A stretch of 64,000 nt of DNA from a bacterium (GTDB lineage Bacteria > SAR324 > NAC60-12), in the NCBI GenBank assembly GCA_965205865.1, contig CBDBHR010000024.1, positions 155,648-219,647 of the forward strand, given 5' to 3'. A model generated the notes under the pieces. It was not told where the DNA came from, made no database searches, and saw only the letters and a program-made list of their open reading frames with translations. Positions 37,900 to 40,467 of this stretch are shown here, one piece after another; the stretch's first letter is position 1, and each line of letters starts with the position of its first letter. The position numbers and the translations under genes are program-made.

Positions 37900-38275
37900 C
37901 ATGTGACCACTTGCCAGATCAGCTTGCAGCACAGGGTTATCTTGTCTTGAAAATGATCTTTGCTCCTAATATACTGTCCTTGATTATTGAAAAAAAACGT
38001 CTGCATGCGCGTTCCATGACTACCGGACATCGCATTGACAATAACCGAAGAATTCTCTAACTGAACCGCTCATCTGCCGCATGGAAACCGCATCAGACAA
38101 TGTGAACCGTATCGTCTATCGGAATTTATAGTTTGCCTTTATCTTCCTTCAAATTGTATCCGGTTTTAGTGCTTGATGAAACTTGGTAATCAATGTCCAA
38201 GAATGGTCAACGGTACTCGCAGGTGGGTTCGGGTTGATCCCGAATTATTGCAGGGTGAGCCTCAAAAGGAACAAA

Positions 38276-38791
38276 ATGGAGCGGACTCTACTCTTGAATG
38301 CTAGCTTCCAACCATTGAAGGTGATCTCTTGGCGTAAAGCCGTACTCCTCCTTTTTTTAGATAAAGTTGAGATTCTTGAAAAATATGACCGGGAAATCCG
38401 TAGTGTCTCCCAATCGATTCCCCTGCCTGCTGTTATACGTCTCATGAAATATGTGCGCTGGGAAAAAGGTCCCGTCAAACTATCCCGTGAGACGATCTTC
38501 CAACGAGACCACTATACCTGCCAATATTGTTCACACCGCCTTTCTTCGCACAAACTAACGTGTGATCATGTGATACCACGCAGTAAAGGCGGAAGAACCT
38601 CTTGGGATAATCTGGTCACTGCCTGCCTCGCTTGCAATGCAAAAAAAGGCAATAAACTTCCTGAAAAGATGGGAGCCTCTTTGAGAAAAAAACCGATGGA
38701 GCCCGATTGGTTTCAGTTTCTCGCTCTCTCTTTGCAGACGGCGCATGATCACCCTGCTTGGAAAATCTACATGTCCTCTATTCCCAATTAA
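38276..38791 (+). CDS. HNH endonuclease
   Basis: LLLNASFQPL, RDHYTCQYC, DHVIPRSKGG..WDNLVTACLACN. Confidence 0.93.
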   Translation: MERTLLLNASFQPLKVISWRKAVLLLFLDKVEILEKYDREIRSVSQSIPLPAVIRLMKYVRWEKGPVKLSRETIFQRDHYTCQYCSHRLSSHKLTCDHVIPRSKGGRTSWDNLVTACLACNAKKGNKLPEKMGASLRKKPMEPDWFQFLALSLQTAHDHPAWKIYMSSIPN

Positions 38792-38908
38792 TCTTGGAAA
38801 TCCATTCGTATTCCGACAGTTTTTTTTCAGAGAGTGGTCGCAGTTTCCTCTACCATCTGCTCAGTGCATAGTACAGGCGTTGGCAATCTATCTCACACGG
38901 GAATGTGA

Positions 38909-39166
38909 TTACCAATTGCTGGTTGAAGACGAGATTCCAGAATTGAAATTCAAATTGCCTATCTCATCCCAACTTCCTCTATCATCGTCTGCCAAAGGAT
39001 CAATCGAATTGATAGAATTGTGGACAGTTTCGATCTTTTTGATCTTACCGCCCCTTTTTAAAAACTGCCGCATCGCTTCGTTGATCTCTTCATGACTGAT
39101 TTTTTTGAAATTTTCTCCTGAATTCATATGACCCTGTTTTCCTTTTTTACGTTCATTGCATACCAT
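38909..39166 (-). CDS. Small protein with a SutA-like RNA-polymerase-binding motif
   Basis: Strong AAGGAGG RBS, the motif EINEAMRQFLKRGGKIKKIE, and an acidic tail. Confidence 0.6.
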   Translation of the reverse strand: MVCNERKKGKQGHMNSGENFKKISHEEINEAMRQFLKRGGKIKKIETVHNSINSIDPLADDDRGSWDEIGNLNFNSGISSSTSNW

Positions 39167-39294
39167 GTTGCCCTCCTTGACTCTCCTTCATACTACTCAA
39201 TGAAACTTCTTTTGCTTCCTTCCGTTGCATGCAAAAATCATGTCTGATTCCCCTGTTTCTTAAAAACAAAGAATTTATTTTAAAACTACTATTA

Positions 39295-39321
39295 CTAGCA
39301 CTCTATGTTTGTGAGTGCTAA
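39295..39321. promoter_or_regulatory. CIRCE element (HrcA operator)
   Basis: CTAGCACTC-TATGTTTGT-GAGTGCTAA: 17/18 match to TTAGCACTC-N9-GAGTGCTAA. Confidence 0.88.
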
Positions 39322-39399
39322 CACTTTTTTGAGGCAAACCTTAACAATTTTTTTTTAAGATATCAACAAAAAAATGCATAAAAAAGAAATTATTGCAAA

Positions 39400-40467
39400 T
39401 CAGGGCAAAACAGCAGCACTTTTGATGAGGGCATAGATTGATTTTCCAGTTTCCAATTGGAGTAAATCGCAGGATTTTCGAGTAACGCGAGCCCACAAGG
39501 GGCTACCTACGTCGAGTAAGAGGTCGATATGGGAAGGGCTTATCCGGATCATAGAGGCAATAGTTCCTTGCAGCATATTGAGGACGCTGCTGTCATGAGG
39601 CAAAGTAGTAGCGATGGTGACATCTCGAGGCAGGATACGGACTCGGATAGATTGCTGGAGGGATAGGTGCTGACGGGCAACAGAAATTTGTCCGCCAGGA
39701 TGGGAGAGCAGGGTCAAGTCGTAGCTCAAATCATGAGCAATGATTTGGGTATCCAGCACCGATCCGATTTCTTCCAACCCATAAAATTTTTGTATTTCAT
39801 GTTGAGCTAACACTTCGACGATGGGACCGTACGCCAAACAAGAACCTTCCGCAATGAAGGCAATGGAGTGGGCGAGGTGAATGATTTCATCAATCAGATG
39901 ACTCACGTAAATAATAGGGATTTTTAATTCGCTGCAGATTCGTTTAAGGTAAGGAAGGATTTGGATTTTACGCGGGGCATCCAGCGAGGCCAGCGGTTCA
40001 TCCATCAACAACAGTTCTGGTTGACGAAGCAAGGCTCTTCCAATAGCCACCCGTTGTTTTTCACCCATGGACAACCATTTGGGATAACGGGTCAACAGTG
40101 TTTCCAATTCCAAAAGAGAAACAATGTTGTCAAAGTGCAGCAACTGCGGTTTCCCCGAAATCTGGCGATAACCATAAACCAGATTTTTTCTCACATTGAG
40201 ATGAGGAAAGAGGCGGGATTCCTGAAAAACGTAGCCCATGCCTCGTTGTGCCGGAGGGAGGTTGATATTTTCCGAAGAGTGAAACAAGACCCGCTGATTG
40301 AGGGCGATTCTTCCATGATCCGGGCTCATCAACCCGGCGATCAGATTGAGTAGCGTGGTTTTTCCAGCACCGGATTTGCCGAAAAAGGCGGTCACGCCAG
40401 GAGGGAAAGTCTGGTTGAAATCGAGTTGAAAACGAGCTATTTTTTTTTGGATATCAATTTCCAGCAA
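39400..40467 (-). CDS. modC: Molybdate ABC transporter ATP-binding protein
   Basis: GKSGAGKT, VFQESRLFPHL, LLMDEP, C-terminal TOBE/Mop domain SSVLN. Confidence 0.9.
   Translation of the reverse strand: MLEIDIQKKIARFQLDFNQTFPPGVTAFFGKSGAGKTTLLNLIAGLMSPDHGRIALNQRVLFHSSENINLPPAQRGMGYVFQESRLFPHLNVRKNLVYGYRQISGKPQLLHFDNIVSLLELETLLTRYPKWLSMGEKQRVAIGRALLRQPELLLMDEPLASLDAPRKIQILPYLKRICSELKIPIIYVSHLIDEIIHLAHSIAFIAEGSCLAYGPIVEVLAQHEIQKFYGLEEIGSVLDTQIIAHDLSYDLTLLSHPGGQISVARQHLSLQQSIRVRILPRDVTIATTLPHDSSVLNMLQGTIASMIRISPSHIDLLLDVGSPLWARVTRKSCDLLQLETGKSIYALIKSAAVLP

Follow-up and report, generated by a model that had tools for sequence, protein, structure and literature searches.

A CIRCE operator before a small SutA-RBD gene: a predicted HrcA-controlled RNA polymerase accessory protein in a family of uncultured bacteria

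The closest described relative of the protein considered here is SutA of Pseudomonas aeruginosa (PDB 7F0R, 7XL3, 7XL4; PMC9300723; 10.1101/423384), which is likewise small and combines a central helix, a GG turn and a strand with disordered tails. According to the cryo-electron microscopy (cryo-EM) paper, SutA occurs in Alteromonadales and Pseudomonadales and binds RNA polymerase (RNAP) through a domain (RNAP-binding domain, RBD) of residues 57-90, with the helix at 57-76 and the strand at 81-84 (PMC9300723). Expression of the Pseudomonas gene is ascribed to RpoD, RpoS and FliA promoters, plus Lrp (bioRxiv 10.64898/2026.06.26.734693). On the other hand, two described systems resemble the present one in their regulation by the repressor HrcA and its operator, the controlling inverted repeat of chaperone expression (CIRCE). 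HagF of Chlamydia is reported as a small, lineage-specific, non-chaperone regulator encoded by a CIRCE-bearing, HrcA-repressed gene (PMC13750654), and the CIRCE listed before rpoH of Geobacter sulfurreducens predicts that HrcA controls a component that reprograms RNAP (PMC545781, Table 8), as may be the case here. The stretch analysed in this work, hereafter the window, comprises 64,000 nucleotides (nt) of a SAR324 bacterium (contig CBDBHR010000024.1, positions 155,648 to 219,647 of the forward strand) and contains a CIRCE in front of a small open reading frame (ORF) whose product carries a SutA-type RBD. The explanation that we favour, with a probability of roughly one half, is that this gene encodes a minimal SutA-type RNAP accessory protein and that HrcA, acting at the CIRCE, represses its transcription. 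In comparison with the precedents, the Geobacter target is a sigma factor, whereas the target in the window is predicted to be a small accessory protein that binds core RNAP; HagF binds HrcA itself and has no reported SutA-RBD (PMC13750654), whereas the window protein carries an RNAP-docking motif.

The operator, CTAGCACTC-N9-GAGTGCTAA at 39295-39321, departs at one position from the consensus TTAGCACTC-N9-GAGTGCTAA (17/18). No other match to the consensus with three or fewer mismatches exists in the 64-kb window, and the mean over 100 shuffles is 0.01 matches. A preliminary description of this DNA had reported a 17/18 CIRCE about 130 bp upstream of an 85-aa ORF with a strong ribosome-binding site, and both observations hold, with 128 nt between operator and ATG and an AAGGAGG 5 nt before the start codon. 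The orientation of the surrounding genes leaves just the small ORF as a target for the CIRCE, as had been proposed: the same-strand gene upstream ends at 39400, and an HNH-endonuclease ORF on the plus strand (HNH_5/HNH, 38183-38791) converges on the small gene and, given this orientation, cannot be the target. The elements of the locus are as follows, in positions of the window and in the order of the gene strand.

39361..39366, minus strand: putative -35 hexamer TTGATA, with a T-run before it as at the clpB promoter (from the sequence)
39338..39343, minus strand: putative -10 hexamer TAAGGT, with a 17-nt spacer to the -35 and 16 nt 5′ of the CIRCE (by-eye alignment)
39295..39321, no strand assigned: CIRCE (HrcA operator), read on the gene strand as TTAGCACTC-ACAAACATA-GAGTGCTAG
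39167..39294, minus strand: leader of 128 nt, from the CIRCE to the start codon
39172..39178, minus strand: ribosome-binding site AAGGAGG, ending 5 nt 5′ of the ATG and the same in the family genome G001
38909..39166, minus strand: ORF of the 85-aa small SutA-RBD protein, stop included (translation)
39026..39106, minus strand: SutA-type RNAP-binding domain, residues 21-47, with helix, GG turn and short strand (PF20661, alignment and model)
38912..39025, minus strand: acidic, probably disordered C-terminal tail, residues 48-85, ending in Trp (composition and pLDDT)

The protein, whose core reads NEAMRQFLKRGGKIKKIE, matches the Pfam model PF20661 (SutA-RBD) over residues 25-47 with 31.0 bits (cut-off 29.3; E 1.6e-7), which is the only match above that cut-off in its genome (hereafter G000) and bears out the resemblance to the RNAP-binding helix of SutA that the preliminary description had pointed out. 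A profile of 17 relatives finds SutA as its top hit in the PDB (E 8.4e-4), and the single protein aligns through residues 21-47 to positions 64-90 of the SutA chain 7f0r_G (E 0.43). By this alignment, once the shift of 4 residues in the numbering of the deposited chain is allowed for, the mutation-validated interface described for SutA (K60, R64, L67, M71, F74, L75, G78, G79, V81 and I84; PMC9300723) corresponds to K21, H25, I28, M32, F35, L36, G39, G40, I42 and I45, respectively. Nine of these ten contacts with the β subunit are thus the same or conservatively replaced, the exception being R64, whose counterpart is H25; among the other 16 aligned relatives, 8 have an Arg at this place. Across the 17-sequence alignment G39, G40 and I42 do not vary, and M32 and I45 hardly do. 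An AlphaFold2 model shows one helix at 25-37, with a mean predicted local distance difference test score (pLDDT) of 82 over residues 21-30, one of 89 over residues 31-40 and low-confidence flanks, the layout of a single helix with disordered flanks reported for SutA by nuclear magnetic resonance (10.1101/423384).

A homologue search with the window protein returned 4 clusters only, a search for related loci with it yielded a single record, from the same genus, and the family profile retrieved from 1.84 billion representatives 187 proteins at E ≤1e-3, 27 of them at ≤1e-10. Among 148 of these relatives, PF20661 is matched at E ≤0.01 by 136, the model of the PFL_1563 family (NF058628), which has a motif of about 23 residues in common with the window protein, by 122, and the SutA model by 61; a single one matches HSP20. 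Co-folding of residues 1-560 of β (26 rows) with the small protein (17 rows) gave values of 0.40, 0.31 and 0.31 (mark, 0.32) in runs without controls, which speak neither for binding nor against it. The Pseudomonas β chain aligns over equal-length spans, and S59 and E73 of β are invariant in 26 relatives, being widely conserved residues and therefore not discriminating. Judged by its sequence, the window protein belongs to the SutA-RBD domain family without being a SutA orthologue, and we lean towards the prediction that it docks on RNAP.

A different partner of the helix-GG motif would be compatible with the same regulation. In this case the small gene would be a true member of the HrcA regulon, and its product would bind HrcA, as a feedback antagonist resembling HagF, or else a chaperone or a client. 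HagF itself provides the precedent, as a small CIRCE-controlled non-chaperone described as acting on HrcA (PMC13750654); moreover, the RBD match is short, the E value of the single sequence against the SutA chain is poor, the binding of RNAP is a prediction, and in one genus of the family (g5) the small gene lies directly behind hsp20. Set against these points are a PF20661 score that exceeds the curated cut-off, the first place of SutA among the PDB hits of the family profile and the nine interface positions retained, GG pair included, while a likeness to HagF never surfaced in the general searches, which involved no direct comparison of the two sequences. We consider a partner other than RNAP unlikely.

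The main departure from SutA is found in the tails. The N-terminal tail of SutA comprises 55 residues, 23 of which are Asp or Glu (D/E), whereas the window protein has 20 residues with 2 D/E and 4 Lys or Arg (K/R) in that place, and its relatives only 1-8 residues ahead of the domain. Instead of the activating acidic N-tail, the window protein ends in an acidic tail of about 40 residues: the 40 positions that follow the GG-x-I-x-x-I motif include 7 D/E and 1 K/R, and their mean pLDDT is 48-52 per 10-residue block from residue 51 on. A tail motif, VHNSI..IDPL...W, is common to the window protein and the orthologues of genera g4, g7 and g9, and all 17 aligned members have C-terminal tails of 31-43 residues with 4-11 D/E and 0-4 K/R. 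The best functional analogy would be offered by ΔN SutA and by the SutA homologues that lack the first ~40 residues (10.1101/423384), which have the same layout of RBD and C-tail, although their C-tails measure 15-18 residues, while that of the window protein is longer and acidic and shows no sequence relationship to them that we could see. SutA is reported to need its acidic N-terminal tail for activation, and a ΔN version to inhibit transcription dose-dependently, this being a laboratory construct with inhibition determined at a single promoter (10.1101/423384). The absence of such a tail means that the mechanism is not simply transferable from SutA, and a modulator of this kind may differ from SutA-like activation.

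It could nevertheless be proposed that the acidic C-tail stands in for the N-tail, so that the protein would boost open-complex formation under stress, for example at rRNA or stress promoters. SutA is described as activating through an acidic disordered tail (PMC9300723; 10.1101/423384), the acidic excess is found in every aligned member, and the C-tail is conserved within each clade. However, in the geometry given in the cryo-EM paper the N-terminal side of the SutA helix feeds a wedge loop into the gap between protrusion and lobe, and the activating tail leaves by this end toward that gap and the main cleft, while the C-terminal side crosses the top of β1 toward σ3.1 (PMC9300723). An activating C-tail would thus leave on the wrong side, and N-tail-less SutA is an inhibitor of transcription (10.1101/423384). 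An activator of the SutA kind therefore seems rather improbable to us, and a minimal accessory protein that resembles N-tail-less SutA is preferred. As to the remaining comparisons with SutA, the window protein comes from a different phylum, its control is predicted to go through CIRCE and HrcA instead of RpoS, FliA or Lrp, and both proteins would be made under stress, as the CIRCE suggests for the window protein.

The genome of the window (G000; 4.74 Mb in 30 contigs, 92% complete, with the window on contig C24) encodes hrcA (PF01628, 200 bits; C30:1234358-1235020) with a perfect CIRCE in front, a presence that the preliminary description had named as a check of its proposal. There are ten CIRCE sites in this genome at up to two mismatches and eight at up to one, against none for the reversed control pattern. 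Sites with 0-1 mismatch precede clpB, hrcA-grpE-dnaK-dnaJ and two hsp20 genes, groES-groEL has a weaker, 2-mismatch CIRCE upstream, and the small ORF is the only non-chaperone among the intact targets. In this 92%-complete assembly no RpoH (sigma-32) scores above the TIGR02392 cut-off; the best match (139 vs 323 bits) comes from an open frame of 631 aa with the look of the primary sigma factor. HrcA may hence be the principal heat-shock regulator of this bacterium. In the family to which it belongs, hrcA was found in 40 of 45 genomes and in all 19 of high quality, the five without a match being 51-86% complete.

These 45 genomes, from 12 genera (g1 to g12), each encode at least one relative of the small protein (1-9 matches), and a CIRCE precedes an orthologue in 30 of them, in 7 of the 12 genera, so that the conservation for which the preliminary description had called is indeed observed. 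Among the best-scoring copies of 30 genomes, 28 have an upstream CIRCE (≤3 mismatches): 17/17 in g11, 3/3 in g5, 2/2 in each of g1 and g7, 1/1 in each of g4 and g12, and 2/2 in g2, where the site is degenerate (3 mismatches); no site precedes those of G008 (g8) and G009 (g9). From another twenty regions came the last two g12 genomes, while 18 were devoid of CIRCE: paralogues, or the top-scoring matches in G006, G010, G013 and five g3 genomes out of nine; the count covers the inspected regions, that is, all but those of G049 and four g3 genomes. The distance from CIRCE to start codon is 29-139 nt in 27 rows and 540-575 nt in three, which sit behind a CIRCE-controlled hsp20. In this last arrangement, that of g5 (L053, L065, L066), a perfect CIRCE lies on the TTGACA-18-TATAGT promoter of hsp20, with the small gene some 120 nt further on in the same orientation, and no further promoter-like or terminator-like site was found on that strand between the two genes, which probably form a bicistronic heat-shock operon.

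The family genomes hold only 1-8 CIRCE sites each at up to one mismatch (reversed control, 0 in 44 of 45), and in g11 the operator of the small gene is among just 1-4 such sites. The upstream neighbours vary: modC in g1 and g4, greA in g7, in g11 a lysyl-tRNA-synthetase-like gene together with a gene for a small membrane protein, and different genes again in g2 and g12, which indicates that the operator travels with the small gene. The scarcity of CIRCE sites, these differing neighbours and the presence of hrcA in most genomes argue together against chance or hitch-hiking. A tree built by maximum likelihood from 60 different proteins of the family (73 columns), of which 30 have a CIRCE within 700 nt upstream and 30 do not, requires two changes of the CIRCE label, as compared with a mean of 20.4 for shuffled labels (0 of 500 shuffles as low). 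The CIRCE-linked proteins fall into clade A (g1, g4 and g7), whose sister is the CIRCE-less protein of G009 (support 98/95), and clade B (g5, g2, g12 and g11; support 90/78), and none of the paralogue clades carries a CIRCE. With 73 columns the deep forks are unsettled, and either one gain or two gains of the operator would fit. Outside the family, a CIRCE close upstream is absent from all 19 regions that surround RBD-type hits in other families of this phylum, the nearest cases being a 3-mismatch match about 510 nt upstream of one hit and another match downstream of a second. By these sequence comparisons the small gene very probably belongs to the HrcA regulon, and the CIRCE-linked SutA-RBD protein appears confined to one family of uncultured bacteria.

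The same genomes contain other small proteins of this type. One to nine SutA-RBD paralogues per genome, with clade-specific tails and none with a CIRCE, were found in the family (loci L018-L035, L068-L087), their tails or motifs including HIAGEPVMGKDYLL..EMLEM, ETEVNGLR...EDWLGEDT, VSHEDV.SAMERF..HGGKITKI and KLPDQK...YESL; the proteins of related genomes with this last tail form a separate clade without CIRCE. As a set they look like a toolkit of mini-proteins that may dock on RNAP with different tails. In g12 (L067, L071, L074), the ~2-3-kb locus of the CIRCE-linked gene also contains another, divergent ORF of the RBD type, MDDSIRAWNRYPAER...DFL..GGQIRQL, which makes a clade of its own (support 100/99). 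Two larger proteins, P0020 (874 aa) and P0066 (216 aa), have 3-6 tandem RBD-like repeats (VPPEVQEAAQRFMANGGELFK and ATKDFLKKGGKIKRYPEG) with the motifs '...FMANGG.LFK' or '...FLKKGGKIK'; they were judged a different kind of protein and rejected as family members, and represent either a reuse of the helix-GG motif in repeat proteins or a look-alike family. P0020 and P0066, together with P0086, were excluded from alignment A3.

Further CIRCE-like sequences are dispersed in G000. Four copies with the same spacer (G000:C4:14747-14773; C26:151340-151366, 158307-158333 and 165336-165362) each have an extra half-site, TAGAGTGCTAATAA, as well as TTGTCAAC nearby and are followed by MNPQKWTEK(A/V), which looks like the start of a clpB-type gene. 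These copies are decayed, with an in-frame TGA at once in the three C26 copies and a frame that breaks down shortly in the C4 copy, and a group II intron reverse transcriptase adjoins one of them. It seems that a heat-shock promoter fragment (promoter, CIRCE and decayed clpB-like 5′ end) has spread with a repeat. The groES promoter region (G000:C23:69227-69330) in turn shows two CIRCE-like palindromes, the 2-mismatch one upstream of the promoter TTGATT...TATATT and a more degenerate one, ATAGCACTC-N9-GAATGCTAT, downstream of it.

Before the small gene, a candidate promoter can be recognised at a fixed distance from the operator. In a by-eye alignment of upstream regions, the -10 hexamer ends 16 nt 5′ of the CIRCE in G000 (TTGATA-17-TAAGGT), G001 (TTGCAC-17-TAGAGT), G016 (TTGACT-17-TAACGT) and G007 (TTGACT-17-TAGCGT), and at the -35 position the orthologue loci L007, L009 and L010 (g1 and g7) likewise have TTGAYW or TTGCAC. 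With this spacing, the CIRCE would span roughly positions +10 to +36 of the transcript. In the other layout, found in g11 and g5 and at the clpB and hsp20 promoters of G000, TTGACA abuts the CIRCE and the -10 (TAAAGT, TATAAT or TATTAT) falls within its 9-nt spacer. Both putative geometries would put HrcA on the promoter. The leader of the window gene has an RNA fold z of -2.67 and leaves the Shine-Dalgarno sequence unpaired in the minimum-energy fold; given this and the lack of any Rfam match at E ≤1, an RNA thermometer or known RNA element was discarded.

Regarding the surroundings, the upstream gene is modC-like by its ABC_tran and TOBE domains, and GreA, ClpA and ClpS are encoded further upstream. 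Of the cysKE-clpSA-greA-modC run that had been proposed, the modC-like gene, greA, clpA and clpS are therefore present, while the 'cysE' ORF matches merely a hexapeptide repeat, and the claim that modC was the sole other neighbour had overlooked the convergent HNH ORF. The stretch or part of it is present in 20 public runs, four of which are metatranscriptomes from two studies. Contigs of these four RNA libraries cover the ORF, with X19 at 38874-39141 and X20 at 38892-39213; they give neither strand, level nor true ends, and stand for presence in RNA libraries only. X17 ends, with no loose end, at 39322, the outer edge of the CIRCE, a weak hint of the 5′ end of a transcript. X15 and X17 also cross both the small gene and the HNH ORF, so that transcripts may overlap in antisense.

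If the palindrome were no working operator in this place, it could be a relic, a hairpin for RNA stability or the terminator of modC, and the gene would be independent of heat. Its mismatch with the consensus, the weak -10 hexamer, the extension of contig X15 across the ORF and past the promoter toward modC, and the G009 orthologue, which does without CIRCE, could all be taken in this sense. On the contrary, the operator is kept with the small gene in seven genera while modC lies upstream in only two of them, it keeps a fixed register to the promoter hexamers, and a chance placement has a probability of about 1e-4 per genome, given the 1-8 sites in each. No terminator-like site was found in a scan of 38700-39600, and the terminator of modC was dropped as an explanation. 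We regard a non-functional palindrome as very improbable.

Several observations weigh against a SutA-type accessory protein under HrcA control. With regard to the protein, it stays below the cut-offs of the NCBIfam models for the SutA equivalog (NF041490; 19.5 vs 145 bits) and for PFL_1563 (NF058628; 24 vs 60 bits), its single-sequence match to the SutA chain is weak over a domain of just ~25 residues, and an acidic N-tail of the SutA type is absent. As for the operator, 15 of the 45 family genomes have no CIRCE-linked copy, the clear orthologue of G009, sister to the clade of the window, has no CIRCE within 1.5 kb, and the genomes are related, so that the counts overstate independence. Finally, a consensus-based scan of 38700-39600 found no promoter-like site on the gene strand, the TAAGGT having been missed as it fits just 3 of 6 consensus positions, and contig X15, from the same study as X17, reaches 39372, past the promoter, with a loose end, in conflict with a clean start at 39322, although read-through from modC or library DNA may account for this extension.

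In any case, the HrcA-linked RNAP modulator suggested in the preliminary description is supported by the hrcA gene, the conserved CIRCE and the SutA-RBD match above cut-off, and a tentative pathway can be outlined. Transcription would start from the sigma-70-type promoter TTGATA-17-TAAGGT, about 9 nt 5′ of the CIRCE, and with this start bound HrcA would block initiation or early elongation. In the HrcA/GroE model, unfolded proteins titrate GroEL away from HrcA. Under protein stress the HrcA sites would become free, and the small gene would be derepressed along with clpB, dnaK, groESL and hsp20. The helix-GG-strand core of the resulting protein would then sit in the hydrophobic groove of the β protrusion (β1), by analogy with residues 57-90 of SutA, with no acidic N-tail or long wedge-guiding region and with the ~40-residue acidic C-tail in their place. 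It is conceivable, by the same analogy, that the protein acts like N-tail-less SutA and damps initiation under proteotoxic stress at sensitive growth promoters, for instance those of rRNA and ribosomal-protein genes, while near-consensus heat-shock promoters would keep firing; this direction of the effect is a possibility that we hold with some doubt. An equally tentative extension is that, in a family apparently without canonical sigma-32, the HrcA regulon holds a mini-SutA brake that would retune sigma-70 initiation through its C-tail, the SutA-RBD paralogues being RNAP add-ons wired to different signals.

A last question is related to the significance of these observations. A literature search, supplements aside, found no paper connecting SutA-type proteins with HrcA, and the terms SutA-RBD/PF20661, PFL_1563 and 'SutA-like' were found only in the SutA cryo-EM paper (PMC9300723). 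The SutA-RBD itself is known; what is new here is that a SutA-RBD protein has its tail architecture inverted and is placed under a different regulatory input. SutA has so far been a Pseudomonas-centred story of slow growth, and its docking module now appears in an unrelated uncultured lineage, where the inverted tails and the wiring into the circuit of the classical chaperone repressor set the small gene apart. If the predicted binding to RNAP is true, HrcA would control the transcription machine as well as the chaperones, the β-protrusion groove would be a widely used docking site for small regulators, and a natural N-tail-less SutA would be at hand for probing how tails set activation or inhibition. 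If the paralogues are indeed a toolkit, they would be unrecognised, interchangeable RNAP add-ons, each tied to a different signal, and if the mini-SutA brake is true, proteotoxic stress would act directly on core RNAP. The conservation of the operator, together with the docking motif, suggests that in this family of bacteria protein-damage stress directly retunes the transcription machinery.

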